Shown one piece after another: positions 18,029-57,362 of a DNA stretch of 64,000 nt (within the stretch, counting starts at the first letter, position 1; each line of letters begins with the position of its first letter). This DNA comes from Thermoanaerobaculia bacterium. GTDB lineage: Bacteria; Acidobacteriota; Thermoanaerobaculia; Gp7-AA8. Made by a program: the position numbers and the translations under genes. Below the pieces are notes generated by a model. The model was given only the letters and a program-made list of their open reading frames with translations. It made no database searches and was not told the origin of the DNA. Where the stretch lies: NCBI GenBank assembly GCA_041748075.1, contig JBGTDX010000083.1, positions 16,383 through 80,382 of the forward strand, in the 5' to 3' direction.

Positions 18029-20254
18029 TCAATCCGCATCCGCTCGAACGCGCCTGACCGGCACGATCTCGACGCGCGTACGCGTCGCGACCGGCCGATC
18101 AAAGAAACGGTCGATACGAGACGTTGCCAGCGCGACCTCGCGTGAAGGCTCGAGGCGGAATTCGGCATCGTACGAGCCTGTCGGGGCCGACGCTGTCAGA
18201 ATCGTGTCGGGCTGATAACTGAGTGCAGTTAAACGCACAACTCCGAAGCTTCCCGTTGAGCTGCCCGCAAAGCTTTCCCGTCGACCGATGAAGTAACGTC
18301 CGCCCCCCATTGCGAAGTCGAACACCATGTTCCCTCCTCTTTCGTCGAGGCGAAGAGACGCCGTTCCTGCGAGCGCTACGCGAGACGACAGATCAAAGGA
18401 TCCCTGGAGGAGAGCCTCGACCAGGAGCCGTTGCCCGGGCCTCGTTTCCCCGGGCAGACAGGCCGTGCGTCCGAGAGTGCCACCTTGGCTCTCCCACTCG
18501 ACCTGGAAGCACGGCGGATCTTCGGCGCGGATCTCCAACACCGCAAGTTGAACTCGATCCAGACGGAATGCAGATCCCAGGCTCGGGTAGACGGCCACTC
18601 GTTCGGGGAATGAGGAGGGGTACTCGTCGAAGAGGTGCAGCCGATGCTCTCCGAGGTCGCGAATCTCCCGGCCGATCATCTTCGCCTGATGCAGCTCAGG
18701 CCAGTTCGAGCGACCGCCGCCTTTGCGCGCCATGGCCGTGCCTTTGTTTGCCACCGACTCGGGATCGAAGGTCTCGATGGCGGCGCGCAATGCCAGGCGA
18801 TGGGGCCCGTCGCTCTCGCTTCTGGGGCCGAAAGACTCGGCCAGGTTCGTCATCGTACCGAACGCGAGTCCCGTTGAAAAGGTCGCGCCATACAACGGGA
18901 TCCAGGAACCGCCATCAAACGAACCTTGAAGCTCCGCCCAGGCGAAGAGCGGTGGCAAACCGGAAACGCAAGAGAAACTGGTGTAAAGATGAGGGGGTTC
19001 GGACGTCAAGCCGAACATAGAGACATCGGGAACGACCTGAATGGAGGCTCGGCGAACCAGCAGTCTCAGTTCTTCATCATTGTGCCGGGCGAGTCGCTTT
19101 GCAACGTCTGCCTCGAAGGCGGGCCAGTACGAATCCACGAAGGACGGGCTGACGTTACGGGCAATGGACTGATCGAGCACTTCCTTGATCCTCTCCCGTT
19201 GCCGCCGGTCCGCAGATTGTCGCTGGGCCAGTTCGAGGCCACCAGCAAGGCCAGCCAACGCCAACAACAGTGCGGTTACCGCTACAGCTTGCCGGTACCG
19301 TCGCACCCATTTATAGCTGCGCCACAGCCAGGTGATCGGACGCGCATGGATCGGCTTTCCCTGCAGGAAGAGCTCGAGATCATCAGCCAGTTCGCCCGCC
19401 GTCCGATAGCGCCTTTCTGGCTCTTTTTCGAGACAGTGAAGCACGATCGCCTCGAGATCGCGGTCGACGTCGCGGCGGAGACTCGAAAGCTTCGCGGGTT
19501 CGTCCTGCAACACCTGGCGCAGTGTGTCGATGATCGACTCTCCACGAAACGGCGGACGGCCAGCGAGTAGATCGTAGAGAAGCGCGCCGAGGGCGTAGAT
19601 GTCCACGGCGGTGGTGAGGACCCGCCCCCCAGCGGCCTGTTCGGGCGCCATATAACTCGGCGTTCCGACGATCGCATCGCTCTTGGTGAGGCTCGGCTCG
19701 TTCCCGAAGCGCCGCGCCAGTCCGAAATCCGCGACCTGGGGTTCGCCCTGAGAATCGATCAGGACGTTCGCCGGCTTCAGATCGCGGTGAACGACGCCCC
19801 GCCTGTGTGCGTAATCGACGGCCCGAGCGGTCTTCATGATGATCGTGGCCGCGCCATTCTGCTCTCGTCCCATCTCGTCGGGCCGTTCCCGGAGGCTCTT
19901 CCCGTCGATCAGCTTCATCGTGAAGTAGTGCGTTCCGTCATGTTCTCCGACCTCGTAGATGGGGACGATGTTCGGATGATCGAGTTGTGCGGCGGCTTCG
20001 GCCTCTCGCCGGAAACGACGCACAGAACCTTCAGATGCGAAATCTCCACCCAGGATGACTTTCAGCGCGACGAGGCGGTCGAGAGTGACCTGACGCGCTC
20101 TGTAGACGATCCCCATCCCGCCGCGAGCGATCTCCTCGAGAATCTCGAAGTCGCCGAAGTAACGGAGTTGCGATCCCGCCTCAAGACCCTTCTTCTCCGG
20201 GTCGCGGTCGGGGCCTCCTGAGATGGTCGACTCGAAGGATGAATCGGGACTCAT
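18029..20254 (-). CDS. Ser/Thr protein kinase with a C-terminal domain of about 450 aa of unknown function
   Basis: Hanks kinase subdomains: GGMGIVYRARQ, VALKVI, HRDLKPANVLID, DFGLAR, GTPSYMAPE. Confidence 0.85.
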   Translation of the reverse strand: MSPDSSFESTISGGPDRDPEKKGLEAGSQLRYFGDFEILEEIARGGMGIVYRARQVTLDRLVALKVILGGDFASEGSVRRFRREAEAAAQLDHPNIVPIYEVGEHDGTHYFTMKLIDGKSLRERPDEMGREQNGAATIIMKTARAVDYAHRRGVVHRDLKPANVLIDSQGEPQVADFGLARRFGNEPSLTKSDAIVGTPSYMAPEQAAGGRVLTTAVDIYALGALLYDLLAGRPPFRGESIIDTLRQVLQDEPAKLSSLRRDVDRDLEAIVLHCLEKEPERRYRTAGELADDLELFLQGKPIHARPITWLWRSYKWVRRYRQAVAVTALLLALAGLAGGLELAQRQSADRRQRERIKEVLDQSIARNVSPSFVDSYWPAFEADVAKRLARHNDEELRLLVRRASIQVVPDVSMFGLTSEPPHLYTSFSCVSGLPPLFAWAELQGSFDGGSWIPLYGATFSTGLAFGTMTNLAESFGPRSESDGPHRLALRAAIETFDPESVANKGTAMARKGGGRSNWPELHQAKMIGREIRDLGEHRLHLFDEYPSSFPERVAVYPSLGSAFRLDRVQLAVLEIRAEDPPCFQVEWESQGGTLGRTACLPGETRPGQRLLVEALLQGSFDLSSRVALAGTASLRLDERGGNMVFDFAMGGGRYFIGRRESFAGSSTGSFGVVRLTALSYQPDTILTASAPTGSYDAEFRLEPSREVALATSRIDRFFDRPVATRTRVEIVPVRRVRADAD

Positions 20255-20339
20255 GCCTGACCCCCTCGCCGCAGCCTGGAACGATCAGTCATCCCATGAC
20301 GCTGCACGGAATCAGTATCGTGCAGGGACCCTCCCGAAG

Positions 20340-20499
20340 CATGAGAGGTTTATGAGATTTTTGTGTGCCCGCTGTTTCGTCGATAGACCAGGTACTCGAT
20401 CCCGCCCTGATCGCGAGCGAAGGATGGCCCAATTCCAGCCACGGGCCGTTCCTTCCTGGTCCGCGCCGTTCCTCGCGTCAATTTGATGAACAGTACCTT
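20340..20499 (-). pseudogene. remnant of a gene 3' end homologous to the C-terminal tail of the kinase at 23496..26708
   Basis: The minus-strand translation ...RPVAGIGPSFARDQGGIEYLVYRRNSGHTKIS* parallels RPGWSWTWLGVSHPELARDEGRIEYMTYRRNSGSQ... The nucleotide similarity continues through the spacer into the next start codon. Confidence 0.4.
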
Positions 20500-23484
20500 T
20501 TACGAGTTCGGTGCTGGTTTGACCAAAGTAATCGTTTCCTCGGTGGAGACTTCGTTGGCGGTGCTGGAAGATCTGTCCAAGGTTTGAAATAGCGTGCCCA
20601 TCTGACTGAGGTCGCGGAGGACTTCGTTTCCATTGCGGAGTCGCCGGTCGAGGCTGGGGTCGATCATTCGCTCGATCAACGACGTGAGCTGCGAAGGAAT
20701 ACGCGCGTCGGGCACTTCCGGTCTGGTGGAAAGAATCTCCAGAGCCAGATTGGTCGAATCGTGTGATTTCCAGGGGCGACGTCCCGTGAATATCTCGCTT
20801 AGCACGATTCCGAACGACCAGACGTCCGCGCGAGAGTCGACCGACTCGCCTCGCAACTGCTCCGGCGAAATGTACGGCAAGGATCCGAGCACCCGCTGCT
20901 GCGACGTGATTGATGTCGTCCCCGCCGAACGTGCGATCCCGAAGTCAAGAAGAACGGTCCGGCCGGATCGGGTGAGCATGACATTCGAGCTCTTCACATC
21001 GCGATGAACTACGCCGGCCTGGTGAAGTGCGGCGAGCGCAGAAGCGACTTCCAGGGCCACCTGGTACGCTGTGAGTTGATTCCAGGATGACCGCCGGATC
21101 GACTCCGCCAGCGTGTCACCTTCGAGCAACTCCATGGCCAGATAGATGCGACCGTCATGCTCACCGCGCTCGAGGAGGCGCACGACATTCGGGTGGGCTA
21201 ACGAAGAGATCACCGCTCCTTCCCGTTCGAGGCGTTTGCGCGCTTCCTCTTTTTCGATCTCCAGCTCGGGAAGAAGCTTGATTGCCGCGAAGGAGTCGTC
21301 GTGAACGTTGACTGCGCGAAAGACTTCGCCCATGCCCCCGGATCCGATCTTCTCCATCAATTCGTAGGCGCCAATCCTCTGCTTCAGCCCATCGGCCAGA
21401 CCTCGAAGCGGGCGTCTGACGTCAGGGAGGGCCAGAAACCTCGTGTCGCCGACTTCGAATCGTTCATTGCGGAGGACGATCGTCGACCGATCGAGCAGAC
21501 GCTGCACGCCGACGCCGATCTGGATTTCCGAGGTTTTGATGCCCGCGTCAAGAAACATTTGCTTCAACCCTTCGATCAGCGCTTCCTTCGAGTCGAGCTG
21601 AGCTGTCGTCAGGCGAGTGATCCCGGCGAAAATGAGACGACTGTGGCGATCGAGCATTCGCCAGTCTGACTCCGCCACGCGAAGTGTACGCAACCTCTGA
21701 TTCTCGATTCCCACAGAGAGCTGACGCGCAACGTCGAGGAGAAATTCTTCATCTCGAGCATCGAACTCCTCGTCGGAGAGTTTCCAGCCGATTCCGATGA
21801 GGGCAACGAGCTCTCCGGTCACTCGGACGGGAACAATCAGACTCGCCTGCGTTCGTTGAATCGTGGCGCTGTCCTCGTCGCTGAGACCTCCGCCGGAGGC
21901 CCGAAGGATCGAGGAGAGATCGGCCAGGGAGCTCGTGGAGCTGATGGTCGTGTCTCGCACGTCAACGTCCACGAGCCCGGCCTGAGCCGCCACGTGGAAG
22001 AAGGGCATGAAGGGCTCACGGCTGAAGATCACGATGGATCGAGCTCGCAACGTATCGCAAAGATGGAGGGCGACGCTGTGAAAGAGCACGTCCGTCGTCG
22101 ATGCCTTGAGGATCTCTTCGCTGACCACTCGTAGCGCTTCAGCGTGTTGATAGGGCTCGCGGAAGAATCTCTGATCGACGACCCGTTGAATCCTGTTCTT
22201 CAGGGGGACGAAGATCCCGGCGATTGCCAGCGTGGAGACAATGGTTACTGTCTGGTTCTGCAGGCCCGATGAGGCCACGAACAACCGTCCCAGAACAGCC
22301 ACGAGCCCGACGTAAAGGAGGATCAATATGACACTCAGCGCGGAATACGCGATCGTCTTCTTGATGAGTCTGTCGATTCCGAGCAGGTTGCGTTTCAGGA
22401 TGGCGAAGGCAAAGGTAATCGGAATGATCATCAGACCTCGAGGATCGATTCCGAATTGGATTTCGTTCATTCCTTCTTCTTCGCTGATTCGAAGATTCAT
22501 GACCGTCGGAAGCAACACGGAGACAATGATTCCAACGATGATTCCCCAGACTGGCCAACGGATCTGGCGTTTCTCCTCCAGACTCGATTGGCGATAGGCC
22601 TTGATGAGATTGACGGGGGCCAGAATGAAATAGGCGATCCCCGAAAGGATGAAGCCTACGAGGCCGACCAGCGCGGGCGTCGGCATGTCAGTCCCCATCG
22701 CATCGATCGTGCCGAAAAAGAGCAAGGCGAACGCCGCGGGGAGGAGGTACAGCGCCGGCTTGAGTGCCGGCTTTCTCTCCACCAGCGGCCGCGGACGGGG
22801 GAAGATCAGACTGAGGTGCAGCGTCATGGCCGGGATGAAAACCAGGATGGATAACACCGAGAAGAGCATCAACACGACGAGAAGAGGATCCTTTACTGCG
22901 TTAGCGACAAGCCTCTCCGCAGCGGGAGACAAAGCGAGAATTCCGAGAAATCCGCACAACCAGTGGAACAGACGTGCGCGCGCATCACCTAGTTTTCGAT
23001 AGTGCACCAGAGTCCCCAGCCCGAGGAGGAATGCGGCCATGAGCGACCCGGAGATGAGCGAGATGATGAAGAAGCGCGAGTCGATGAGCCGTCGCGGAGT
23101 CACCGTGACCTCGCGTTCTCCCGTGATCTCGGCCTTTCCGCGCTTCTGTTCGACGCGGCCGAAAACATAGCGCCGCGGCTCGCCCGTGAATAGCCTCGTT
23201 GCACCGGCCTTGCCCGGCGAACGATGATCGATCTGGAGAAGAAGCTCGCCACTGCGCACTCCGGCGTCGTCGGCGGGACTATGCTTGTCGACGTCGATCC
23301 ACACCGACTGATCACCCTCCGGTTCCTGGCGGAAACGGATTCCGTCCCAGGCAGACCGGTAGAGAATCGTGACGGCGATCGACAGCGTGGCAATTGCCAG
23401 GACGCCGAGGACACCACTGGCGATGAGAAACGCTCGAAGTTCTGTGGCCATTGATCCCTGACTTGGAGATTCGATCGGAACCAT
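20500..23484 (-). CDS. membrane sensor Ser/Thr kinase: N-terminal TM, periplasmic PDZ-like segment, about 8 TM helices, GAF-like domain, C-terminal Hanks kinase
   Basis: The kinase motifs are at the C-terminus (GSGGMGEVFRAVN, HRDVKSSNVMLT, DFGIARS). The N-terminal two-thirds is polytopic. Confidence 0.8.
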   Translation of the reverse strand: MVPIESPSQGSMATELRAFLIASGVLGVLAIATLSIAVTILYRSAWDGIRFRQEPEGDQSVWIDVDKHSPADDAGVRSGELLLQIDHRSPGKAGATRLFTGEPRRYVFGRVEQKRGKAEITGEREVTVTPRRLIDSRFFIISLISGSLMAAFLLGLGTLVHYRKLGDARARLFHWLCGFLGILALSPAAERLVANAVKDPLLVVLMLFSVLSILVFIPAMTLHLSLIFPRPRPLVERKPALKPALYLLPAAFALLFFGTIDAMGTDMPTPALVGLVGFILSGIAYFILAPVNLIKAYRQSSLEEKRQIRWPVWGIIVGIIVSVLLPTVMNLRISEEEGMNEIQFGIDPRGLMIIPITFAFAILKRNLLGIDRLIKKTIAYSALSVILILLYVGLVAVLGRLFVASSGLQNQTVTIVSTLAIAGIFVPLKNRIQRVVDQRFFREPYQHAEALRVVSEEILKASTTDVLFHSVALHLCDTLRARSIVIFSREPFMPFFHVAAQAGLVDVDVRDTTISSTSSLADLSSILRASGGGLSDEDSATIQRTQASLIVPVRVTGELVALIGIGWKLSDEEFDARDEEFLLDVARQLSVGIENQRLRTLRVAESDWRMLDRHSRLIFAGITRLTTAQLDSKEALIEGLKQMFLDAGIKTSEIQIGVGVQRLLDRSTIVLRNERFEVGDTRFLALPDVRRPLRGLADGLKQRIGAYELMEKIGSGGMGEVFRAVNVHDDSFAAIKLLPELEIEKEEARKRLEREGAVISSLAHPNVVRLLERGEHDGRIYLAMELLEGDTLAESIRRSSWNQLTAYQVALEVASALAALHQAGVVHRDVKSSNVMLTRSGRTVLLDFGIARSAGTTSITSQQRVLGSLPYISPEQLRGESVDSRADVWSFGIVLSEIFTGRRPWKSHDSTNLALEILSTRPEVPDARIPSQLTSLIERMIDPSLDRRLRNGNEVLRDLSQMGTLFQTLDRSSSTANEVSTEETITLVKPAPNS

Positions 23485-23495
23485 TTCTTCCCAGC

Positions 23496-26400
23496 CTAGT
23501 CCTTGCGAAACTGTACCTCGACGAGTCTGATTTCGCGCTGACTCCCGCTGTTTCGTCGATACGTCATGTATTCGATCCGGCCCTCGTCGCGAGCGAGCTC
23601 AGGATGGCTCACTCCCAGCCACGTCCAGCTCCATCCTGGTCTGGAGGGCAAGGTGTCGATCTCGATCACCGCTTCCGACCACGGGCCCTCCGGACGGTCG
23701 GCGAGACGAATCTGGATTCGCTCGTCGAGAACCCGGCTTCCGACGGCCATGAATTTGCCGAGGAATGCATTCCAATGGACGCTGAAAATCCCCCGCTGAA
23801 TTCCTGCACTGAGAACCGGCTGCGCGTCCTTCCAGTCGCTGCTCCAGCGTCCGTGTGCCCCAAGAAACCGCCACGCAGAGCGGTCAAGGGCCGCGGCAAG
23901 GGGGACGCGCGCCAGTCGGCACGAAGCCTCGAGGCCGCGAGGCTCGCAGGCGTATGCGTACATCTGATCGCCGACGACCAGCGCCGCCGCTCCCCACGCC
24001 GGTTCATCCGGTCCGAAGAGCAGCGTTGGGGTATCCGTTTCCGGGCGAACCGCCGGCCGATCGCCCGTGAGACTCCCCCGGGTCCAGACGGCCAGAGACG
24101 TCCCGACGGACTCGTCGTCTCGCGGCGGCTGCCTCAGCATTCGACGGTAGAAGACGAGAAGGCGATCTCGCTCGCCGTCCGCGACGACCGCTGCGGGCGC
24201 GAGAATCCACCCCACCCCGCACGGCTCAACGCAGTTCGCGCCACTGTGCGCTGCGTTGAAGGCCGCTTCCTCCTTTGTCAACGGCAATAGCTCGCTCGGC
24301 ACGCCTGTTCCATCCTTCAACTCGTCGAGGACGTCGAGGCCCTTCCTGGCATCCAGCTTGTCCGTCCAGGCAAGAGTCGCTTGTCTCGAAGTCGAGCCCT
24401 TCCTCCCCGAACGTGTCGTTGTCGTCTCCCCGAAGACCCAGACGGACTCTCCGCCGAGACGCGCGCTGTAGCCTCCCTCGCGATCGACTACGGTCTCGTC
24501 GAAGTCGAGCGGTCCCATGTCGCGCGCCTCCTCGACGAAGATCACCGGCAGAAGAGCCTGCGTGCGGGCGGCGGCTTGGGGACGCCTCCAGGACCGATAG
24601 AGACTCGCGAGTCTGACGAGCGCCTGCTGCGTCGAGGCGTTGTTTCCGCCACGCTCTGTTTCCAGCACCGGGATCGCCTCCAGGAGCAGCGTCTCGGCCT
24701 CCCCGAACCGCTCGCGGGCGGTCAGGAACGCGCCGAGGTCTGACCGAAGCCTGGCCGCACGCGCGGATCGCTCCAGTCCAACTTCTCCCAGAAGGCTCAA
24801 TGCTTCGCGGAGGACCGGCTCCGCCGCGGCGTCGCCGACTTGCAGCAAGCGAGCACCGTTGCGCTCGAGAATCGTGGCCAGCGACCGCTGCGTTTCGAGC
24901 AGACTCGGCGCCCCCGGCGGGAGTACTCTTCTACGCCGCGCCAACGAGGCGCGGTAGACCGACTCGAGAGCCTCGTCATTCGCGTCGGCCGGCCGCAGCG
25001 ACTTGGCCTCGAGCCGCTCAACCAGACGCTCCATGAGCTCGATCATGTGCTCGTCCGCGCTGGCGATCTTCCCGCGCATCTGCGCCAGGATCCGCCGTCG
25101 CAACGCGTCAGCCTCTTCCGGGGCCAGCAGCTCCGTCATCAGGACGGCCGCATGGACTGCGTCGGGGTCGCCCCGATCGAGCGCCCGATCGACGAGCGTC
25201 AAACCCTCACGCATCAACTTCTCCCGCCCCTCATATTCGCTGCTCGAGGAGAAGAAGCCGTAACGAAACAACTCGAGCAGGAAGAGTCGGTTCACCGCAT
25301 ACGAGGCGAGGCCAGGACTCCCCTCTCCGAGCAGCGAATTGTGCAGATCCATCGCCTCGCCGGATAGCTTCACATAACGGCTGCGGTCTCCGAGCAGCGC
25401 CGCCTGCACCGACTGAGCCTCCAACGCGTTGCGAGCGGCCTCCGACTCGGCGCGTTGCTGCGCAGCTTCAGACCGAAAGTACAGGGAGGTGATCACCACG
25501 GCACCAGCGAGAAGGATGACCAACAACCCGGCCGCGGCCGCGAACGCAGCGCGATGCTTCCGGACGAGTTTCTTCAATCGATAGGAGCGACTCGGCGGGC
25601 CGGCCAGGACAGCTTCGTCGGCAAGGTGTCGTCTTGCATCGGCAGCCAGCTCGGATGCGGATTGGTACCTTCGGTCCGGATCCTTTTCCATCGCGCGCAG
25701 CGTGATCCACTCCAGTTCCCCGCGAAGCTGCCGGGCCAGAGAGCGGATGTCCGTGTGCCGCCGCCGCGCGATCTCCGGTGCTGAGTCCCCGAGACTGCCG
25801 AACTTCGTCGTCGGCCTCGGCGGCTCCTCCTCCTGGATGATGCGGAGCATCTCCACCGCCGCGGCCCGCCGAAGGGTGGCCGGATCGAAAGGAAGGGCGC
25901 CAACGAGAAGCTCGTAGAGCAGGACTCCAAGAGAGTAGATGTCGGTCCGGGCGTCGACGTCGAGCGCCGTCGTTCCCGCCTGCTCCGGACTCATGTACTC
26001 GGGGGTGCCCATCATGACACCCTGCTTGGTGAACAACGTCTGCTCGGTCAGTGTCTGGCCGGTTGCCGTGGCCAGCCCGAAGTCGATGACTTTCGGAACC
26101 GGGGTTCCATCGTCCGAGGACACCAGGACGTTCGACGGCTTGACGTCCCGGTGGATGACGCCTTTCTGATGGGCATGCTGAATTGCGTCGCAAACCTTCG
26201 TAAATAGAGCCAGCCTTTCTCGAAGTGGAAGACATCGCAAGTCGCAGTACTCGGTGATCCGGATGCCGGGCACGTACTCCATGACGAAGTACGGCCGTCC
26301 CTGATCCGTGGCGCCTGCGTCGAAGACTTTGGCCACGTTGGGGTGGTTCATGACGGCGAGAGCCTGACGCTCGGCAGCGAAGCGGGCCAGCACTTCGCGG

Positions 26401-26708
26401 GTGTCCATGCCCGGCTTGATCACTTTGAGTGCCACACGGCGGCGGATCGGCTCGATCTGCTCGGCGAGGTACACGATGCCCATTCCGCCCTGGCCAAGGA
26501 TCTGGAGGATCCGATAGTTGCCGACGTGAGTGGGGTGGTCAGTTGAAAGAAGTTGCGATTCTGCGGGAGCTCCCCCGGTAATGGTGGACTCGCCCTCTCC
26601 CTCATTGGGCGCGAGCTCCAGATTCTGCAGGCATTTCGGACAGAGTCCGTTCGCGATCTCCTTCGGAAGGGCGTCACCACAGTCGGGGCATCTTGGATCG
26701 GAGTTCAT
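23496..26708 (-). CDS. Ser/Thr protein kinase with an N-terminal zinc ribbon, a TM helix, a TPR-like helical region and a C-terminal beta-rich domain (DUF4185-like guess)
   Basis: CPDCGDALP...CPKCL zinc ribbon; GQGGMGIVYLAEQ, HRDVKPSNVLV, DFGLA. It lies 12 bp upstream of the next kinase. Confidence 0.85.
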   Translation of the reverse strand: MNSDPRCPDCGDALPKEIANGLCPKCLQNLELAPNEGEGESTITGGAPAESQLLSTDHPTHVGNYRILQILGQGGMGIVYLAEQIEPIRRRVALKVIKPGMDTREVLARFAAERQALAVMNHPNVAKVFDAGATDQGRPYFVMEYVPGIRITEYCDLRCLPLRERLALFTKVCDAIQHAHQKGVIHRDVKPSNVLVSSDDGTPVPKVIDFGLATATGQTLTEQTLFTKQGVMMGTPEYMSPEQAGTTALDVDARTDIYSLGVLLYELLVGALPFDPATLRRAAAVEMLRIIQEEEPPRPTTKFGSLGDSAPEIARRRHTDIRSLARQLRGELEWITLRAMEKDPDRRYQSASELAADARRHLADEAVLAGPPSRSYRLKKLVRKHRAAFAAAAGLLVILLAGAVVITSLYFRSEAAQQRAESEAARNALEAQSVQAALLGDRSRYVKLSGEAMDLHNSLLGEGSPGLASYAVNRLFLLELFRYGFFSSSSEYEGREKLMREGLTLVDRALDRGDPDAVHAAVLMTELLAPEEADALRRRILAQMRGKIASADEHMIELMERLVERLEAKSLRPADANDEALESVYRASLARRRRVLPPGAPSLLETQRSLATILERNGARLLQVGDAAAEPVLREALSLLGEVGLERSARAARLRSDLGAFLTARERFGEAETLLLEAIPVLETERGGNNASTQQALVRLASLYRSWRRPQAAARTQALLPVIFVEEARDMGPLDFDETVVDREGGYSARLGGESVWVFGETTTTRSGRKGSTSRQATLAWTDKLDARKGLDVLDELKDGTGVPSELLPLTKEEAAFNAAHSGANCVEPCGVGWILAPAAVVADGERDRLLVFYRRMLRQPPRDDESVGTSLAVWTRGSLTGDRPAVRPETDTPTLLFGPDEPAWGAAALVVGDQMYAYACEPRGLEASCRLARVPLAAALDRSAWRFLGAHGRWSSDWKDAQPVLSAGIQRGIFSVHWNAFLGKFMAVGSRVLDERIQIRLADRPEGPWSEAVIEIDTLPSRPGWSWTWLGVSHPELARDEGRIEYMTYRRNSGSQREIRLVEVQFRKD

Positions 26709-26796
26709 AAGGTCCCTCCCTCACCCTCTTCTAAAGAGACGCGAGAACGACGAAGTTCTCTAGTCATTGATTCCTGATCTGGAACTCGGTGTGAAA

Positions 26797-28629
26797 TCAT
26801 TTTAGGAACCTCGGAAGCGCCAATGTCAAGAAGGGAACATAGGTAATTGCCAGTACGCCGAGAAGTAGCACAAAGACAAACGGCAAGACCGCCAGCGCCA
26901 GCTCGCCTAACGGTTTGTTGAAGCGATAGGCCGAGATGAACAGATTCTCTCCAACCGGTGGCACGAGGAACCCGAGCTCGAGGTTCGCCAGGAAGATGAT
27001 CCCCAGGTGAATTGGGTCGATTCCGAAGGCGACTCCGAGCGGCAGGATCAGCGGGACGACGACGACGATGGCCGAATAGACATCCATCAATGCACCGACG
27101 ACGATCAGAAAGAGATTGAGCAGAAGCAGGAAGACAAGCTTCGATTCGATGTTCGCTGTCACCCACTCGACCGCGAGCTGGGGGATCTCTGCGTCGACCA
27201 GGTATCCCGTCAGGCCGAGCGAGACACCGAGGATGAGGAGAATGCCACCGACGAGAAGCCCCGAGTCGACGAAAACCGAGGTGAGCTTTGACGGACTGCG
27301 ATAGTCCCGATAGATCACCGTTTCGATGAAGAGTGCGTAGAGAGCAGTGACGGCTGCGGTCTCGACCGCGGTGGCAAGCCCTGTGAGCAGCGGCGCCAGA
27401 GCGACAACCGGGAGAAAAAGCTCCCATTTCGCTGCCCAGACTGCGCGAGCCGCGTCACCTGCGTTGAATCGCACATCATTGCTACCCCGCGGCTGCTGCG
27501 AACGGCCTAACCATCCGCTGAGCACCAGAAGCAGAAAGCCCGGTACTATCCCGGCGAGAAAGAGCTGGCTCATCTCCAGACCGGCGGCGATTCCATAGAG
27601 AATGAGGGGGAGACAGGGAGGGAAGAGGATCCCGAGCGCGCCGGCGCCGGTCAGTAGTCCAAGCGCAACGCGCTCGGAGTAACGCGCCTCGAGGAGAATC
27701 GGCAGGAGCAGACCCCCCAGAGCCAGGATCGTTACGCCCGACCCTCCGGTGAACGTCGTGAAGAACGCACACGCGAGCACGGTGACGATGGCCGGCCCGC
27801 CACGAACTCCCCCGACGAGCGTACGGAACACTCTCACAAGCCGCCCTGACGCGCCTCCTTCGGCCAGGATGTACCCGGCGAGAGTGAACAGCGGGATCGC
27901 CGGCAGCGAGGGGTTGACCACCAGAGAGTAGTGGCTCACCGCCATCGCGGCGAGCGGAATCTGCGCAGACCAGTAGGAGACGATCGCCGCTCCCCCGAGG
28001 ACGGCGAAGATGGGCGCGCCGAGAACCGCTGCGGCGAAGACCACGGCGAATCCGGCGAGGATCATGGAGTGACTCGAGATCTCGCCCTGGCTGACGAGAA
28101 GCATGACAAGCGTTGCCGCGCTCGTGATGAGCCGGGAAGACCACTGGTTGGATGCTGCCATGATGAGCCGCAACGCGATCAACCCGAAACCGATCGGAAG
28201 GATCGCCTGAATCACCCAGGTGGGCACTCCGTAGGCGAGCGTTCTCTCGTCCAGACGTTCGGTGAGAACGAATCGAGCGCTGGCGATGGCCAGTAGAGCG
28301 CTCACCGCCGCGCCAATCGAGCCGGCGACGATCCTGGCGACAGCAGCCCAGCGACCGTGCAGCAGGCTGCTCGTGGCCAGACTCAGGAGACGCCGCTCCC
28401 GCGCGGCGATCGCAGCGCCGATCATGCCGACGGCGAGCGTGCAGTGCTGCACGATCACACTCGCCCCGGAGACTCCCGTTCCGCGCAGCTTTCGCAGCAC
28501 GATCTCCGCGATCGGAACGGCGATCATCAGGAGCAACACGATGAGGAGGAGCCCGTTCTCGAGTTGCTCGAGCGGTCGAGTCTTCCTCGAGCGCACCTCG
28601 ACCATCGGGGAAAAAGCCAACTCGCTCAT
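26797..28629 (-). CDS. TRAP transporter fused small/large permease (DctQ-DctM fusion)
   Basis: 610 aa; an N-terminal DctQ-like four-TM module followed by a DctM-like 12-TM module. Confidence 0.85.
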   Translation of the reverse strand: MSELAFSPMVEVRSRKTRPLEQLENGLLLIVLLLMIAVPIAEIVLRKLRGTGVSGASVIVQHCTLAVGMIGAAIAARERRLLSLATSSLLHGRWAAVARIVAGSIGAAVSALLAIASARFVLTERLDERTLAYGVPTWVIQAILPIGFGLIALRLIMAASNQWSSRLITSAATLVMLLVSQGEISSHSMILAGFAVVFAAAVLGAPIFAVLGGAAIVSYWSAQIPLAAMAVSHYSLVVNPSLPAIPLFTLAGYILAEGGASGRLVRVFRTLVGGVRGGPAIVTVLACAFFTTFTGGSGVTILALGGLLLPILLEARYSERVALGLLTGAGALGILFPPCLPLILYGIAAGLEMSQLFLAGIVPGFLLLVLSGWLGRSQQPRGSNDVRFNAGDAARAVWAAKWELFLPVVALAPLLTGLATAVETAAVTALYALFIETVIYRDYRSPSKLTSVFVDSGLLVGGILLILGVSLGLTGYLVDAEIPQLAVEWVTANIESKLVFLLLLNLFLIVVGALMDVYSAIVVVVPLILPLGVAFGIDPIHLGIIFLANLELGFLVPPVGENLFISAYRFNKPLGELALAVLPFVFVLLLGVLAITYVPFLTLALPRFLK

Positions 28630-29675
28630 TTTGGCTCCGCGGCCTTCGGAGATGCGATCGGGCGGCGATATTCACTGAGAAGCCGTTTGACCTCGTCGAA
28701 GAGATCCACAGGCACGATCCGTCCGCGAATCATCGGATAGCTCTGTTCGGCCGCGCGCTGCCACTCGGCTTCGAACTGCGGGGGGACTTTGTGAACGCGG
28801 AGATCGCGCTTTTTCATCGCTTCGACCGCCTGGTCGCTTTCCAGTCGATTGCGCGCTTTCATCGTCCTTCCGGCATCCGCCGCGGCAGTCGCCAGCGCCT
28901 TTTGAGTTGCGGGTGGAAAGGTGTTCCATGCCGTTTCCGTGATCACGAAAGCGCCGACCAGCGGCGCCCAGTTGAGCTCCAGCATGTGCGGAGCCTGTTT
29001 GAACACCTGCGTGGCCAGGGCTACGTAGGGCGGCAAAGGAACGGCGTCGATCATTCCCATCTGCAGAGAAGGAAGAATGTCAGTGGTCTCGAGAGGAACC
29101 GGCCGGAACCCTGCAGCCTTGTAGATGTCAGTTGCCTCGACGTCACCCGCCCAGGTAAAGAGCTTGGTTCGCTTCAGGTCGTCAGGACGCAGGATCTCGC
29201 TCTTGGAGAAGAAACGCACCCACCCGGCATCTGCCCAGAAGAGAACGACGAACCCCTTGTCCCGGAGGCGTCGCTCCAGCCTCGGACGCAGTTTCTCGCC
29301 GATGAAATCGACCTCTTCGAGGGAGCGGAACATCATGGGCATGCTTTGCAGAGCTTCGACAGAGTCGTCGATCTCGGAGAGGCCGACCACGGTCAGTAGG
29401 CCGGCGTCGAGAGCGCCGTTTTTCATTCTCCGCACCATCTCCGCCTCTCCGCCCAGAGTTCCCCCGGGATAGATCTTCAGTACGACGTCATGCTTCTGCC
29501 ACTTCTGACCCATCTCGACGAGGATCTTGTCGAACGACGAATCTTTCGGCGCTACGGTGCCGAGCTTGATCCTCGCGGGCTTGTGGGCCGGCGTCTGCTT
29601 TGCTGACAGCGACATCGTGAACAACAGGGCAGCGGCTACTGACGATAGGGTGATTCGAAGTGATTTGCGCATCAT
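28626..29675 (-). CDS. TRAP transporter periplasmic solute-binding protein (DctP family)
   Basis: Signal peptide plus a DctP-like fold; 4-bp overlaps on both sides mark an operon. Confidence 0.8.
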   Translation of the reverse strand: MMRKSLRITLSSVAAALLFTMSLSAKQTPAHKPARIKLGTVAPKDSSFDKILVEMGQKWQKHDVVLKIYPGGTLGGEAEMVRRMKNGALDAGLLTVVGLSEIDDSVEALQSMPMMFRSLEEVDFIGEKLRPRLERRLRDKGFVVLFWADAGWVRFFSKSEILRPDDLKRTKLFTWAGDVEATDIYKAAGFRPVPLETTDILPSLQMGMIDAVPLPPYVALATQVFKQAPHMLELNWAPLVGAFVITETAWNTFPPATQKALATAAADAGRTMKARNRLESDQAVEAMKKRDLRVHKVPPQFEAEWQRAAEQSYPMIRGRIVPVDLFDEVKRLLSEYRRPIASPKAAEPK

Positions 29676-30616
29676 TCATCTCCGGTAGCTGAGTCGAGAA
29701 ACAGTTCGTCTGCACGTGAAAGAAGCCATCGCGCTCGCCGCTGGGCCAGGACGTTTTCGAGACGCCATTCAGGTCGGGCATTGGTGTCGACGGCGAGAGC
29801 GCGATTCAGCAACTCTTCGAACTCGCCGCGGTTTTGAGAAGGCAATGCGAAGATCTCGGCGGCTGACACGAAGGGTGAGGCCAACTTGCCTTGCGATAGC
29901 TGAACGGCACGATCGAAATGCGTCCGAGCGTTGACTGAGGCGTCGCGCGAGAGCGGGCCCTGCGCCGCGTCATAGCTCATCAGGAAGGAATCGATGGATC
30001 CCTCTCCAAATCCGGGCTCGAGCTCGGCAGCGCGGTCGATCATGGCCTTGGTGATGGGGAGATCGGCCAGCATCTCCAGGTCATCCATGCTGCGCGCGAT
30101 GGCCAGCCCCCATGAGGCGGCGGCCCAGTAGAGCGCGGGGACATCATTCTTGTTCGTGCGGGCCAGGGCCGAGGCGGGGTTAGCCATGAGTCGCTTTTCG
30201 AAGTCCTCACCGAGGGCGCGCAGGGCGTACTTGCGCGCGCGAAGATAGAGCCGCTTGGCGCGCTCGCGCTCGGCCGCGGCCGCCGCTGGATCGACCTCCT
30301 CCAGTTCGTCGGATGTCTGGTCGACCCAACCATAGCTGTACTGCATGAATCCTCGCGCCGCGGCCACGAGGAGTGGGCGATGATTCGGTGATTGCTCAAG
30401 GAGACTCTCGATCAGCTTCAGCGTGAAGGGGAGCGCCTGGCCGACCAGATCAGGATCGTCGTCGGCGGTGAAGGTTGATCCACCGCCGGCAATGACGTTC
30501 CCCACCTCGTTGACCGCGAGCGTTCGGAGCGAGCATCCGCCCGCGAACGACAACGAAAGAAGCAGCGCGAGAGTCCGGGCCAGAGTTCTATCTTCGAGTT
30601 TCCGCCAGTTCTGCAT
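29672..30616 (-). CDS. TatT-like TPR lipoprotein (T component of TPR-protein-associated TRAP transporters)
   Basis: Lipoprotein signal (LSFAGGCS). The helical TPR-like body resembles TatT. The start at 30616 (ATGCAG) has a strong AGGAGG RBS. First gene of the tatT-dctP-dctQM operon. Confidence 0.6.
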   Translation of the reverse strand: MQNWRKLEDRTLARTLALLLSLSFAGGCSLRTLAVNEVGNVIAGGGSTFTADDDPDLVGQALPFTLKLIESLLEQSPNHRPLLVAAARGFMQYSYGWVDQTSDELEEVDPAAAAAERERAKRLYLRARKYALRALGEDFEKRLMANPASALARTNKNDVPALYWAAASWGLAIARSMDDLEMLADLPITKAMIDRAAELEPGFGEGSIDSFLMSYDAAQGPLSRDASVNARTHFDRAVQLSQGKLASPFVSAAEIFALPSQNRGEFEELLNRALAVDTNARPEWRLENVLAQRRARWLLSRADELFLDSATGDE

Positions 30617-30704
30617 ACAATCCTCCTCGAACCAAGATAAGCATCGGTTGGCGGGCATTCGAAGTCTTGGAGGAATCCTTGTGTTTTCATGACTTCCGAG
30701 CGGC

Positions 30705-31358
30705 ATGATGGCCATCATTCGATTCGGAGTTTTTGAGCTCGACCGGGGTCGGCGGATGCTCCTCCGAGAGGGTGCCGGTGTCCATCTTTCGCCTAAAGCC
30801 TTCAGGCTTCTCGAGGTCCTGATCGAGAGGAGACCCGACGCGATCTCCAAGCAGCAACTTCACGACGAGGTGTGGCCGGAGACGTTCGTGTCAGAATCGA
30901 ACTTGGCCGGTCTGATCACCGAGGTGCGCGGCGCACTTGGTGACGACGCGCGATCGCCTGCATTCATTCGAACCGTTCATGCGTTCGGGTACGCCTTCTG
31001 CGGGACCGATGTAAAGGCTGGATCTGAGCCGGGCGGATCAATCTCTGCGCTCGTGGAATGGAATGGGCGTCAGACCGCGCTCGCTGAGGGCGAGAACGTG
31101 ATTGGACGCGATGGCAGCGTGGCGGTGTTCATCGACGACTCGACGGTTTCGCGCCACCATGCGCGCATCACGGTGACGCCGGACAAAGCCACACTGGAGG
31201 ATCTGCGAAGCAAGAACGGAACATTCATCCGCGGCCAGAGGATTGAATCGGCCGACCTCGAAGATGGCTCCGAGTTTCACGTCGGCGGAGTCAAGGTTAT
31301 CTTTCGCCGAGCGCACGCCGATAGTTCCACGATGACACTCGATGTCTCACGCCGCTGA
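30705..31358 (+). CDS. transcriptional regulator: OmpR/CadC-type winged-helix DNA-binding domain plus C-terminal FHA domain
   Basis: The N-terminus IRFGVFELD...LSPKAFRLLEVL...TVHAFGYAF has the trans_reg_C pattern. The C-terminus GRDGSVAVFIDDSTVSRHHARI...NGTFIRGQRI has the FHA pattern. It is divergent from the TRAP operon. Confidence 0.7.
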   Translation: MMAIIRFGVFELDRGRRMLLREGAGVHLSPKAFRLLEVLIERRPDAISKQQLHDEVWPETFVSESNLAGLITEVRGALGDDARSPAFIRTVHAFGYAFCGTDVKAGSEPGGSISALVEWNGRQTALAEGENVIGRDGSVAVFIDDSTVSRHHARITVTPDKATLEDLRSKNGTFIRGQRIESADLEDGSEFHVGGVKVIFRRAHADSSTMTLDVSRR

Positions 31359-31372
31359 ATCCCTGGAGAATT

Positions 31373-31756
31373 TCATCTCTCCGGAGTGTCCTGCGGCCGA
31401 TCCTCACTCCGCTCCTCATGACGTCTGGAGTCCTCACCAGGAGTGTCCTCCTCGACGAGCGTCAACAAAAGGCGAGACGGAACCTGCTCCCACATCGCAC
31501 CGGTGAGTGCATCCAGGCCCACTCCCACTGCCGTGAAGAGCCCGAGGACCAGCCCGTCCTTTAGCGACTCCGCCTTCTCCATGAGCACGAAATTGTCATC
31601 CACCGAATCGGAGGTCACACGGGTGAGAGTCACCGTCTGGTCCGCGTAGCCCGGAAACGACAGAGTCAAGCTGCAGCGGGTGGCACGACGGCTGACCCAG
31701 ACCGTAGCGGGAGTTCGCAGGCGAGCGGCTCGCCATCCACCGCAATCCGGCGCCAC
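31373..31756 (-). CDS. hypothetical membrane protein (possible PEGA-like segment plus one TM)
   Basis: ORF only; weak. Confidence 0.3.
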   Translation of the reverse strand: MAPDCGGWRAARLRTPATVWVSRRATRCSLTLSFPGYADQTVTLTRVTSDSVDDNFVLMEKAESLKDGLVLGLFTAVGVGLDALTGAMWEQVPSRLLLTLVEEDTPGEDSRRHEERSEDRPQDTPER

Positions 31757-31797
31757 CGCTACCTGGAAAGGATGGACGCGAGTCGAATCTCCATTGC

Positions 31798-32244
31798 TTG
31801 CGCTGGAGTAAGTTCGCCGGAGTCCTCGCTCTGCTGATCGTGAAATCAGCCTTCGCGGAAAGCCTCGGTGAGGTTCGGCAATCGTTGGGCGAGCTGCGGG
31901 GGCTCTCGCCGATCGCCGCGCACATCGAAACGGAAGGGACGGAGATCAACGGAAAGGAGAAAAAGGAATTCAGGCTAAGTTCGTTGATCGAACATGACGG
32001 TACGACACTTCGCGTCGTTTACTCGAAGACAGAGCCGGCCGAGTCAGCTCCGAAAAAGCGCAAGTCCGCCGGTAATGAAGGTGAGGGCGACGATTCGCCA
32101 CGAGGCTGGAGTGGGATCAGCCTCCGCCCTTGGCCAAACGAGCAGATTCACAAGCTCGACAACGGTGACCATTCGAGAGTGATGTCGGTAACGCAATCTC
32201 GATGGCACTGTCGAATCTGCCTGCGAAATATTCACGTTCGATAG
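31798..32244 (+). CDS. hypothetical secreted protein
   Basis: N-terminal signal peptide (LALLIVKSAFA); no recognisable domain. Confidence 0.35.
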   Translation: MRWSKFAGVLALLIVKSAFAESLGEVRQSLGELRGLSPIAAHIETEGTEINGKEKKEFRLSSLIEHDGTTLRVVYSKTEPAESAPKKRKSAGNEGEGDDSPRGWSGISLRPWPNEQIHKLDNGDHSRVMSVTQSRWHCRICLRNIHVR

Positions 32245-32287: not shown

Positions 32288-32363
32288 TGGCTGTGGCGGC
32301 AGGATTCGAACCTGCAACCTACGGATTAACAATCCGCCGCTCTACCAGTTGAGCTACACCACA
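32288..32363 (-). tRNA. tRNA-Asn (anticodon GTT), CCA encoded
   Basis: Hand-folded cloverleaf: acceptor TGTGGTG/CGCCACA, D-arm GCTC..GAGC, anticodon arm GCGGA-TTGTTAA-TCCGT, T-arm GCAGG-TTCGAAT-CCTGC, discriminator G; 76 nt. Confidence 0.8.
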
Positions 32364-32409: not shown

Positions 32410-32904
32410 TCAGGCGTCCTCACGAGTGTACTCGTCAGGAATGGCCAGATCCTTCCGCTCGATCTCCCACATGATATTGAGCGCTGCCCAGCCGTGCCCC
32501 TGCTTGAGGAGCTGGATACTGTTGATACCGCGCTCGAAAGGCCTGGGCTCGTCCGCGAGACTCGACTCGTAGGTGCTGAACACGTGCGCGACGTTACCGA
32601 AGGCTTCCACGCTCCGGAACACCTCACGCTGGAAGAACCCCCTCCTTTCGAGCTCGCTTCCCGTGATGATTCCCTGCGACCTTTCCAGGAAAGGCTCGAC
32701 ATCAAGCACCTCGGCCGCCAACGAGTCGTCGGCCCGCGGCGGTGTGATCCGCGCGCGCGGATGGAACAGGGTGCGCAGGCGCCGGTAATCAGGCAGCTTG
32801 CCGGCTGCGAAGGAAATGCTCGCGTAATAGGCACGGATGATCGCGTCGATCGATTCGAGATCTTCGAGTTTGGGCTCCGGCATAGGCTCTGAGCTCCTCA
32901 GCAT
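32410..32904 (-). CDS. hypothetical protein
   Basis: ORF only; 164 aa with no recognisable motif. Confidence 0.4.
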   Translation of the reverse strand: MLRSSEPMPEPKLEDLESIDAIIRAYYASISFAAGKLPDYRRLRTLFHPRARITPPRADDSLAAEVLDVEPFLERSQGIITGSELERRGFFQREVFRSVEAFGNVAHVFSTYESSLADEPRPFERGINSIQLLKQGHGWAALNIMWEIERKDLAIPDEYTREDA

Positions 32905-57223: not shown

Positions 57224-57362
57224 CAGCCAAAATCACCCATCCATCCGTCAGAAAGAACCGCTCACTGGAAACGATTCCAGGCACACCTGTGGCAATCCGT
57301 ATTCTGGTGGCCCGGAAAGCCGCTCCGGCTTGCCTATAATCCACACCGACAGGAACAACCTG

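Follow-up and report, generated by a model that had tools for sequence, protein, structure and literature searches.

A 64,000-nt window (the whole stretch of DNA analysed) from a Thermoanaerobaculia bacterium of soil (Acidobacteriota; Gp7-AA8; assembly GCA_041748075.1, contig JBGTDX010000083.1) contains a locus whose core we propose to be a signalling cassette of receptor Ser/Thr kinases and an FHA-domain transcription regulator. Such a cassette would control its own kinases, to which this lineage alone would add a transporter of the TatT type. We give this reading a probability of roughly 0.55. Among relatives the conserved partnership is that of regulator and kinase, with the transporter an optional passenger, and the evidence does not support a link dedicated to TPAT transport. 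Signalling from kinase to regulator is a well-supported prediction given how closely Ser/Thr kinase genes are associated with the regulator family; control of the transporter may be at most a lineage-specific wiring, since transporter and kinase genes appear to share a divergent promoter.

Organization of the locus

An ORF check of positions 18029–31358 found the genes where the earlier note had placed them. Six genes lie on the minus strand. Read towards falling coordinates, they are tatT, dctP, dctQM, K3, K2 and K1, so that the TRAP operon is upstream of the kinases and not downstream of them, as had been stated. The regulator gene is on the plus strand and diverges from tatT, with a spacing of 88 bp. 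The tatT and dctP genes overlap by 4 nt, as do dctP and dctQM, the dctQM–K3 spacer is 88 nt, and the gap between K3 and K2, given previously as 12 bp, measures 11 nt with the longest ORF or 44 nt with the NCBI start (983 aa), which an orthologue keeps; the K2 start is likely at 23451. The transporter genes thus look, from gene spacing alone, as if they precede the kinases in a single transcription unit, and membership of K1, 245 nt beyond K2, is uncertain. Terminator-like sites in the locus are no commoner than chance. The claim of three multidomain kinases in tandem on the minus strand agrees with both ORFs and Pfam, and the triplet is only mildly unusual here because kinases are abundant, a fourth lying at 54497–57223; no PP2C phosphatase was found among the genes of the 64-kb window.

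The predicted TRAP operon is borne out by Pfam. The tatT gene (29672–30616, minus strand) encodes a TPR lipoprotein, the T-component of a TPAT-type TRAP transporter (Pfam TAtT, 8.6e-76, 255 bits), and its reading frame really begins at ATG 30616, with the lipobox FAGGC after it; a TTG-start ORF reaching 30850 was rejected as an artefact. The lipobox residues Cys28-Ser29 are unchanged in 33 homologues. The dctP gene (28626–29675, minus strand) encodes the solute-binding protein (Pfam DctP, 1.1e-36; NCBIfam TRAP_S1, 252 bits), and dctQM (26797–28629, minus strand) a fusion of the small and large permeases (Pfam DctQ, 1.3e-15, and DctM, 1.7e-70; TIGR00786, 312 bits). Characterised TatT-family proteins bind long-chain fatty acids (PMC11713862), and by analogy this transporter probably imports long-chain fatty acids or lipids. 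In the TPAT system of Treponema pallidum (Tp0956-0958) and that of the Enhygromyxa salina TatT, one operon likewise encodes the lipoprotein TatT together with DctP and a DctQM fusion, and the three-gene unit is kept across 80 related TatT loci, whereas kinase genes downstream and an FHA regulator upstream are found only in the window and in one strain (L012) that is about 98–99% identical to it and has the same arrangement.

All three kinases retain the GxGxxG, VA(I/L)K, HRD, DFG and (A/S)PE motifs, and their accessory modules differ much as the earlier note described. K3 (23496–26708, minus strand; Pkinase, 1.7e-40) is a receptor kinase with an N-terminal zinc-ribbon-like Cys4 motif (two CxxC pairs), the kinase domain, a transmembrane (TM) segment at aa 388–406, a TPR/helical region and a DUF4185 ectodomain (53.5 bits, above cut-off), a beta-propeller of the GH183 family. 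K2 (20500–23484, minus strand) is a membrane sensor kinase. One TM segment at its N-terminus is followed by a PDZ-like domain (23.7 bits, under the Pfam cut-off of 27), about seven further TM segments and a GAF domain (27.7 bits), and the kinase domain (Pkinase, 2.4e-49) is C-terminal. K1 (18029–20254, minus strand; Pkinase, 1.2e-49; TM at aa 324–342) is a receptor kinase with a 400-aa ectodomain in which tandem beta-sandwiches come after a helical bundle (AF2 pLDDT 80.9). This ectodomain has no Pfam match, is rare (52 relatives among 1.84 billion representatives), and in a fold search gave nothing beyond generic Ig/FnIII-like matches.

The dctQM–K3 spacer contains a remnant uORF of 20 codons, MTRELRRSRVSLEEGEGGTL (26705–26767, minus strand), whose stop overlaps the K3 ATG (ATGA) and whose first six codons duplicate the K2 start. 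It lies within a duplicated junction region: a 51-nt segment at 26751–26801 has a second copy at 23435–23485, with 36 of 51 nt identical, and K3 itself is a secondary insertion.

Conservation of the regulator–kinase neighbourhood

The regulator belongs to a large, apparently so far uncharacterised family of Acidobacteriota (at least 1780 clusters), often with several paralogues per genome. Its neighbourhood was sampled at 80 species-level loci. First, a receptor Ser/Thr kinase gene is directly adjacent (within 600 bp) at 37 loci, in 25 cases downstream and co-directional, and a kinase domain lies no more than 4.5 kb away at 58; at 25 loci there is no kinase in the available flank. Second, the first kb downstream of the regulator has a density of 3.66 kinase domains per 10 kb versus about 0.5 elsewhere in the flanks, and linkage to adjacent kinases, enriched about 7–9 fold across the family, is far above the background of related genomes (0.2–0.5 kinases per 10 kb). 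Third, nearer homologues of the regulator likewise adjoin kinases, and the architectures of the partner kinases vary among family members. Finally, none of the 80 loci has tatT, dctP or dctQM within 10 kb, and none of the 80 TatT loci has a wHTH-FHA regulator.

The two nearest sister lineages (L009 and L174), 84–88% identical to the window, have the interior of the TRAP operon deleted, with scars left behind. Both retain the regulator, the control region and a kinase gene, which is K3 in L174 and K2 in L009, where K3 is missing. The L009 K2 orthologue (82% protein identity) starts MTRELRAFL and is divergent from the regulator orthologue. The control region between regulator and tatT (30617–30704, 88 bp) is 86–89% identical in these lineages and the remnant of the tatT 5′ end (30514–30616, the first ~100 nt) 91–92%, as compared with 82–87% for the regulator gene and 84% for K2; the two together form the best-conserved stretch in these TRAP-less relatives, and the remnant is its most conserved segment. 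No sigma-70 consensus promoter or operator motif was found in the 88 bp, and no family-wide motif upstream of regulator genes.

These comparisons bear on the proposal in the earlier note that the kinases act through the FHA reader on TRAP transcription. Its first half gains support from the family-wide adjacency of kinase and regulator; its transporter output does not, and the conservation of the regulator with TRAP genes, offered as a check, fails at both sets of loci and in both sister lineages. A model in which the three kinases signal through the regulator chiefly in order to switch TPAT transcription can cite the short divergent spacing between regulator and tatT, the placing of the kinases after the transporter genes on their strand, and the same order in the L012 strain. 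We nonetheless consider it improbable, as the association is absent from all 80 loci on either side, lineages that lost the operon retained the regulator, its control region and a kinase gene, and the gene polarity is the reverse of that assumed.

It also seems unlikely that the neighbourhood is simply fortuitous, with the cognate kinase and the DNA targets of the regulator elsewhere in a kinase-rich genome. Four kinases in 64 kb, the kinase background of related genomes, the varied partner architectures and the secondary insertion of K3 would all fit such an explanation. Against it, three diverged lineages have kept the regulator beside K2 or K3 in spite of two rearrangements, adjacent kinases are enriched across the family, and the control region is better conserved than coding sequence.

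A predicted phospho-threonine switch

The regulator gene (30705–31358, plus strand) encodes 217 aa, or 216 aa from the probable true start, the second ATG at 30708. An OmpR/ToxR/CadC-type winged helix (aa 4–100; Pfam Trans_reg_C, 1.4e-16) is joined by a flexible linker to an FHA domain (aa ~115–202; Pfam FHA, 1.2e-18), the fusion that had been proposed from the sequence, and followed by a disordered tail (aa 203–217; AF2 pLDDT 86.8 for the model). The FHA ligand-binding residues G134, R135, S149, R150, H152 and N171, and T209 in the tail, do not vary in 39 homologues, and the phospho-threonine-binding residues of the FHA domain are intact. The tail, SSTMTLD, carries conserved Thr209 and Thr211; a TxT motif is present in 78 of 96 family members and STxS in most others, about 7–12 residues past the last FHA strand, where AF2 leaves disorder. 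The conserved tail threonine is the likely phospho-acceptor.

The proposed cassette would resemble a two-component system, but with a Hanks-type receptor kinase in place of the histidine kinase and an OmpR-type regulator whose receiver domain is replaced by the FHA domain and Thr-bearing tail. One or more membrane kinases (K2 being the best candidate, K3 and K1 possible) would autophosphorylate on threonine upon an envelope or membrane signal, the FHA domain would dock the regulator onto the phosphorylated kinase, and the kinase would phosphorylate the tail at Thr209 and perhaps Thr211. The FHA domain of a second molecule could then bind the phospho-tail, in trans rather than in cis to judge by the shortness of the tail and general FHA geometry alone, and the resulting dimer would set two winged helices on DNA. 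The target here would be the 88-bp divergent region with the adjoining first ~100 nt of tatT, which would drive the regulator gene in one direction and a tatT-dctP-dctQM-K3-K2 transcript (perhaps including K1) in the other, and through it the kinases plus, in this lineage only, the transporter. The cytoplasmic C-terminal motif of K2, ETITLVKP, speaks for this scheme: it resembles the STMTL of the regulator tail and persists in the K2 orthologue, where the residues around it have diverged. Points against the scheme are the 25 loci with no kinase in the available flank, the lack of a PP2C gene in the window, the negative search for a promoter or operator between regulator and tatT, and the scarcity of an ST.[ST] motif before the kinase domain in the adjacent kinases of distant members (3/40 near, 2/35 far).

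Alternatively, the FHA domain might bind the autophosphorylated kinase and thereby hold or release the regulator at the membrane, the kinase setting the level of free DNA-binder and the regulator being no phospho-acceptor. The invariant FHA ligand-binding residues accord with this, as do Thr-rich cytoplasmic stretches in K1 (ESTISGG), K3 (ESTITGG) and K2 (ETITLVKP); EmbR–PknH (PMC6213207) and GarA–PknB (PDB 6i2p) are established cases of an FHA domain that docks on a phosphorylated kinase. We regard sequestration as doubtful all the same: it leaves the near-universal tail threonine unexplained, in the precedents the FHA protein is phosphorylated once it has docked, and at distant loci an N-terminal extension is almost lacking in most adjacent kinases.

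Phosphorylation of the tail has precedents among other FHA proteins. In GarA/OdhI of actinobacteria and DgcB of Bdellovibrio the protein's own disordered tail is phosphorylated and then bound by the FHA domain, which constitutes the switch. Like the regulator, these proteins have a flexible tail with a conserved Thr motif, and they are the top structural matches to its FHA domain (6i2p, 2kb3, 6hc0, 6hc1). Their tail is N-terminal, however, whereas the predicted phospho-tail here is C-terminal (~7 residues past the last strand), and what they control is the inhibition of enzymes or diguanylate cyclase activity, where the regulator has a predicted DNA-binding domain.

In PDB profile searches the FHA domain matched EmbR, FhaA, GarA and also DgcB, and the winged helix OmpR, KdpE, ToxR and also CadC. 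A close precedent is PknH–EmbR of Mycobacterium tuberculosis, in which the kinase gene adjoins that of a regulator with a winged helix and C-terminal FHA domain, the best PDB sequence match to ours (2fez, E 1.4e-18); PknH phosphorylates EmbR via this domain, raising promoter DNA binding (PMC6213207). EmbR differs in its length (388 aa) and in a SARP-class BTAD between the two domains; its winged-helix segment scores only 5.9 bits, far below the fit to OmpR, KdpE, ToxR and CadC, and the conserved Thr tail and multiple paralogues in Acidobacteriota are features of the present family. The regulator is probably a kinase-coupled FHA transcription factor in the manner of EmbR, without the BTAD domain. 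The Trans_reg_C winged helix is shared with OmpR/PhoB response regulators and ToxR/CadC, but the regulator has neither the receiver domain and phospho-aspartate site of the former, its input being through FHA, nor the transmembrane or periplasmic part of the latter. FHA domains are also joined to DNA-binding domains in EspM, the mycobacterial FHA–HTH regulator of ESX-1 (a weak NCBIfam match), and to a forkhead winged helix in eukaryotic FOXK, although domain order and DNA-binding folds or families differ and homology is limited to the FHA domain.

Organization of the locus

The interval 18029–31358 contains seven genes. It is part of a chromosomal stretch (60–62% G+C across the window) for whose proteins the nearest matches come from Thermoanaerobaculia and other Acidobacteriota MAGs. 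Six genes occupy the minus strand, and in their reading direction, by descending coordinate, they are tatT (29672–30616), dctP (28626–29675), dctQM (26797–28629), and the Ser/Thr kinase genes K3 (23496–26708), K2 (20500–23484) and K1 (18029–20254). The seventh encodes the regulator (30705–31358, plus strand) and diverges from tatT across an 88 bp intergenic region (30617–30704). Pfam confirms every domain named in the earlier note and the kinase catalytic motifs are complete, so the described genes are all present; the transporter operon, however, had been placed downstream of the kinases and is in fact upstream of them.

The first three genes specify a TPAT transporter, since a TatT lipoprotein (TAtT, 255 bits), DctP (127 bits) and a fused DctQ and DctM are encoded in one operon. 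The TatT start is the ATG at 30616, which is followed by a lipobox with an invariant cysteine; a longer TTG-initiated tatT reading frame overlapping the regulator gene is an artefact. No curated NCBIfam family matches TatT at cut-off. Judged by its family, this transporter probably takes up long-chain fatty acids or other lipids; among TatT proteins, such fatty acids are known as ligands for Tp0956 and Es_TatT only (PMC11713862).

The minus-strand genes are closely packed: tatT and dctP overlap by 4 nt, as do dctP and dctQM, an 88-nt spacer with a possibly coupled uORF separates dctQM from K3, and the gap between K3 and K2 is 11–44 nt. Scanning 17.5–32 kb gave no sigma-70-like promoter sites, and terminator-like sites were present at chance level. 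The tight spacing and the lack of terminators above chance suggest, as far as sequence can indicate, that tatT through K2 form a single transcript. An inverted repeat at the tatT start (30592–30607 / 30649–30664) was rejected as an RNA structure, its fold energy being that of shuffled sequences (z = 0.15), and CATTCGA/TTCGA-type repeats in the intergenic region were rejected as operator candidates, with 18 copies in the window versus 16.7 expected (no enrichment). The sole Rfam match over 17.5–33 kb is a tRNA gene (32291–32363, minus strand, 74 bits) about 1 kb past the regulator, and the small open reading frames near the tRNA and regulator genes (31373–31756, 31798–32244 and 32410–32904) have no Pfam or NCBIfam match.

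A family of wHTH-FHA proteins associated with receptor kinases

The regulator is 217 aa long (216 aa from the second ATG, the probable start) and is, as the earlier note recognized, an OmpR/CadC-type DNA-binding domain joined to an FHA domain. First, its winged helix (aa 4–100) matches Trans_reg_C with 60.7 bits (cut-off 26.2) and is connected by a flexible linker of about 13 residues to the FHA domain, which scores 67.8 bits. Second, 39 homologues all share the canonical phospho-threonine-binding residues G134, R135, S149, H152 and N171, and the FHA domain resembles those of FhaA and GarA (Foldseek TM 0.8–0.9). Third, the protein ends in a 15-residue tail that is disordered in the predicted structure (overall pLDDT 86.8, with residues 207–217 below 50), and T209 of this tail does not vary among the 39 sequences, while conservation of T211 reaches at least 90%. 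A TxT motif is present in 78 of 96 family members from the fetched loci and STxS in most of the others, always a few residues past the last FHA strand. A conserved threonine in the disordered tail of an FHA protein is likewise a feature of GarA, OdhI and DgcB, and by this analogy the tail of the regulator is a candidate phospho-switch.

The closest functional parallel is PknH–EmbR, which would work alike: the regulator shares with EmbR a C-terminal FHA domain and an adjacent Ser/Thr kinase gene, and EmbR is the top FHA match (E 1.4e-18) in a PDB search with the 39-homologue profile. The winged helix, in contrast, matches the DNA-binding domains of OmpR, KdpE, ToxR, CadC, SaeR and PhoB, with that of EmbR far weaker, and Foldseek agrees with these likenesses. 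In EmbR and the SARPs a BTAD follows the winged helix, whereas Pfam finds no BTAD in the regulator, which places it outside that family. It is also not an OmpR-type response regulator; although it shares the Trans_reg_C winged helix with OmpR and PhoB, this domain is N-terminal, and Pfam finds no receiver domain (Response_reg), which in those proteins carries the phospho-acceptor aspartate. No NCBIfam model matches the regulator at cut-off. A literature search of incomplete coverage returned neither a description of a Trans_reg_C plus FHA regulator lacking BTAD nor a regulator of any TPAT system.

The family is large, with at least 1780 clusters at E ≤ 1e-5 (both domains are present in all of the best 120) and 507 confirmed matches in species-representative genomes, nearly all of them Acidobacteriota and several with more than one copy. 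We surveyed 80 loci from different species with regulators 43–52% identical. A kinase domain is encoded within 4.5 kb of the regulator gene in 58 of these, and the first kilobase downstream of it has such domains at a density of 3.66 per 10 kb, as against about 0.5 in the remainder of the flanks. At 37 of the 80 loci a kinase gene lies no more than 600 bp away, being co-directional and just downstream in 25, convergent in six, divergent in four, and upstream on the same strand in two. Most of these neighbouring kinases are receptors of the kinase-TM-PD40 beta-propeller or TPR type; closer homologues of the regulator (62–68% identity) adjoin kinases of yet other architectures, and for two of them no kinase is encoded within their short contigs. 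By genome context, the family is strongly coupled to receptor Ser/Thr kinases. No motif common to the family emerged when k-mers of 85 family upstream regions were compared with a control. In 7–9 of the 85 regions (150 nt, from regulator-family loci L014–L093) there are 8-mers around GCGCGATAATC that the coding controls lack altogether; these may be a promoter element of one subclade.

The association with the transporter is of a different kind. No tatT, dctP or dctQM gene is present within 10 kb of the regulator at any of the 80 loci. From the other side, a metagenome scan with TatT as a single query was empty and was repeated with an alignment query, yielding 80 TatT loci (47–58% identity) in which tatT-dctP-dctQM is a conserved three-gene unit and none has a wHTH-FHA regulator. 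The neighbourhood is thus conserved in neither direction, and the link to the transporter is incidental. The phospho-relay that had been predicted to run from the kinases through the FHA protein to TRAP transcription accordingly divides into two: the step from kinase to FHA regulator is supported, and a relay specific to TPAT systems is not, beyond possible local wiring. Ten of the 80 TatT loci have a kinase somewhere in the flank, and seven encode large CadC-like proteins in which the winged helix is the only match. Proteins of 560–940 aa with such an N-terminal winged helix lie about 4 kb upstream of tatT in L106, L121, L138 and L165, and one is directly divergent from tatT in L167; in these TatT-carrying lineages they are a possible alternative TPAT-associated regulator.

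Loss of the transporter in sister lineages

Comparison with the closest relatives reveals three states of the locus. L012, a near-identical strain (98% nucleotide identity), has the arrangement of the window; it also carries an additional stretch of about 393 bp (L012 5377–5771), which falls at window position 31762, a short way past the regulator gene. In L174, where the regulator is 88% identical, regulator and intergenic region are kept, but of the operon only ~125 nt from the tatT 5' end and ~66 nt from the dctQM 3' end survive; the two are fused, and K3 follows. In L009 and L008 (regulator 84% identical) regulator and intergenic region are likewise kept, the fusion is between ~100 nt of the tatT 5' end and ~135 nt of the dctQM 3' end, and a K2 orthologue (82% protein identity) comes immediately after it, with K3 absent. 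The junctions lie at L009 2997–3260, L008 1591–1880 and L174 1086–1300, corresponding to window 26932–30513, and the breakpoint on the dctQM side is common to both lineages without the transporter. The short tatT segment could in principle represent the state preceding insertion of the operon, but it retains the TatT signal peptide and lipobox, which identifies the remnants as deletion scars. The regulator, its control region and one kinase gene therefore persist after loss of the transporter.

Identity to the window is 91–92% for the tatT remnant, which is still an open reading frame, and 86–89% for the intergenic region, as against 82–87% for the regulator gene and 84% for K2. This higher conservation suggests that the segment has a function beyond encoding TatT, and most simply it would be a promoter, operator or leader that now feeds the kinase gene directly.

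K3 itself looks like a secondary insertion into the dctQM–K2 junction, because it is bracketed by a 51-nt direct duplication of that junction (26751–26801 and 23435–23485, 36 of 51 nt identical), the unit of which takes in the dctQM stop codon, the spacer and six codons at the start of K2. The uORF preceding K3 (26705–26767, minus strand) is a relic, 20 codons long, of the start of K2 (MTRELR...), and its stop codon overlaps the K3 start (ATGA), and K3 may be translationally coupled to it. Recombination between the 51-nt repeats appears to account for the loss of K3 in L009.

The kinases and a possible circuit

K1, K2 and K3 match Pkinase with 169.5, 168.5 and 139.5 bits respectively (cut-off 31.7), and the Gly-rich loop, VAIK lysine, HRD, DFG and APE motifs are present in each translation (K1: GGMGIVY, VALKV, HRDLKPAN, DFG, APE; K2: GGMGEVF, AAIKL, HRDVKSSN, DFG, SPE; K3: GGMGIVY, VALKV, HRDVKPSN, DFG, SPE). 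No curated NCBIfam family matches their accessory parts at cut-off. In K1 a single TM segment links the kinase to an ectodomain of 400 aa (aa 343–741; 18032–19228, minus strand). This ectodomain is a rare orphan module: a set of 1.84 billion representative proteins contains only 52 relatives, nearly all of them C-terminal in proteins of similar length. It is predicted to form a helical bundle followed by tandem beta-sandwiches (pLDDT 80.9, pTM 0.78), and a PDB comparison gave generic Ig/FnIII-like folds with no specific match. K3 has two CxxC pairs, a kinase, a TM segment, TPRs and a DUF4185 ectodomain (aa 753–1018, 53.5 bits, cut-off 39.5; the extracytoplasmic DUF4185 region, about aa 750–1070, corresponds to 23496–24450, minus strand); the DUF4185 family includes GH183 endo-D-arabinanases, which cleave mycobacterial arabinan and whose catalytic residues have been described (PMC10115798). 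Depending on these residues, the K3 ectodomain could be an enzyme or a glycan sensor. K2 has a TM segment, a sub-threshold PDZ domain, about seven TM segments, a GAF domain and a C-terminal kinase. A similar PDZ/multi-TM/GAF input with a SpoIIE (PP2C) output in place of the kinase is encoded in the TatT locus L168 (250–2844, minus strand), about 2 kb from tatT with an SLT/LysM transglycosylase gene between; no PP2C phosphatase gene was found within the window.

Which of these kinases would act on the regulator is suggested by two observations. K2 is the retained neighbour in L009, and its C-terminal ETITLVKP (aa 981–988 in the 994-aa numbering), which resembles STMTL of the regulator, is kept in the 82%-identical orthologue where the surrounding tail has diverged; K2 is therefore the best candidate partner. 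Similar threonine motifs precede the kinase domains of K1 (ESTISGG, aa 7–13) and K3 (ESTITGG, aa 39–45), so that the regulator tail (SSTMTLD, aa 207–213) has counterparts in predicted cytoplasmic tails of all three. A common role as phospho-acceptors or as FHA-docking sites is possible, and as evidence for partnership these resemblances are weak; among regulator-adjacent kinases of distant loci, [ST]T.[ST] ahead of the kinase domain is not enriched (3 of 40 versus 2 of 35).

EmbR–PknH is an established FHA system (PMC6213207), and from it, GarA/OdhI and DgcB a mechanism can be drawn. The FHA domain of the regulator would dock on the threonine-phosphorylated kinase, which would phosphorylate Thr209 and perhaps Thr211, and the phospho-tail would then be bound by the FHA domain of a second regulator molecule. 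The tail threonine lies only about seven residues past the last FHA strand. FHA termini are opposite the ligand-binding loops, and with so short a tail binding in cis looks unlikely on geometric grounds; binding in trans would yield a DNA-binding dimer. If tatT through K2 form one transcript, the regulator would autoregulate the kinases and, in the lineage of the window, the transporter. A bolder reading, given a probability of roughly 0.3, is that wHTH-FHA proteins are a large Acidobacteriota class of Ser/Thr-kinase-dependent 'response regulators', each paired with a receptor kinase and activated by a phospho-threonine in the C-terminal tail through FHA-mediated trans dimerization on DNA, and that in this organism the autoregulated operon of one such pair has taken in a TPAT importer of fatty acids or lipids together with two more sensor kinases by capture.

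To our knowledge, the routes from the large Ser/Thr kinase sets of soil Acidobacteriota, Myxococcota and Planctomycetota to the transcription machinery are largely unknown, and EmbR is almost the sole worked example of kinase signalling to an FHA-containing transcription factor. The regulators are compact (about 215 aa), abundant, often in an operon with a kinase and endowed with an obvious candidate phospho-acceptor, which would make the family a tractable model of kinase-driven transcription control; it is worth experimental attention, and a rule built on it would help to annotate MAG proteins by the thousand. The TPAT side matters less, as an instance in which a probable lipid importer can join such a circuit and then be lost; should the capture have occurred as proposed, envelope sensing would be linked to lipid uptake in this organism.

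The window holds a fourth Ser/Thr kinase gene (54497–57223, minus strand), which indicates that these genomes are kinase-rich. Its product is of the kinase-TM-PD40 type usual beside wHTH-FHA regulators elsewhere, and no FHA regulator adjoins it. A divergent gene for a TonB-dependent receptor (57213–59660, plus strand) overlaps the start of this kinase gene, which on its other side adjoins a LytTR-type two-component pair (51423–54178, minus strand) consisting of a His_kinase/HATPase_c sensor (52199–54178) and a REC-LytTR regulator (51423–52202).
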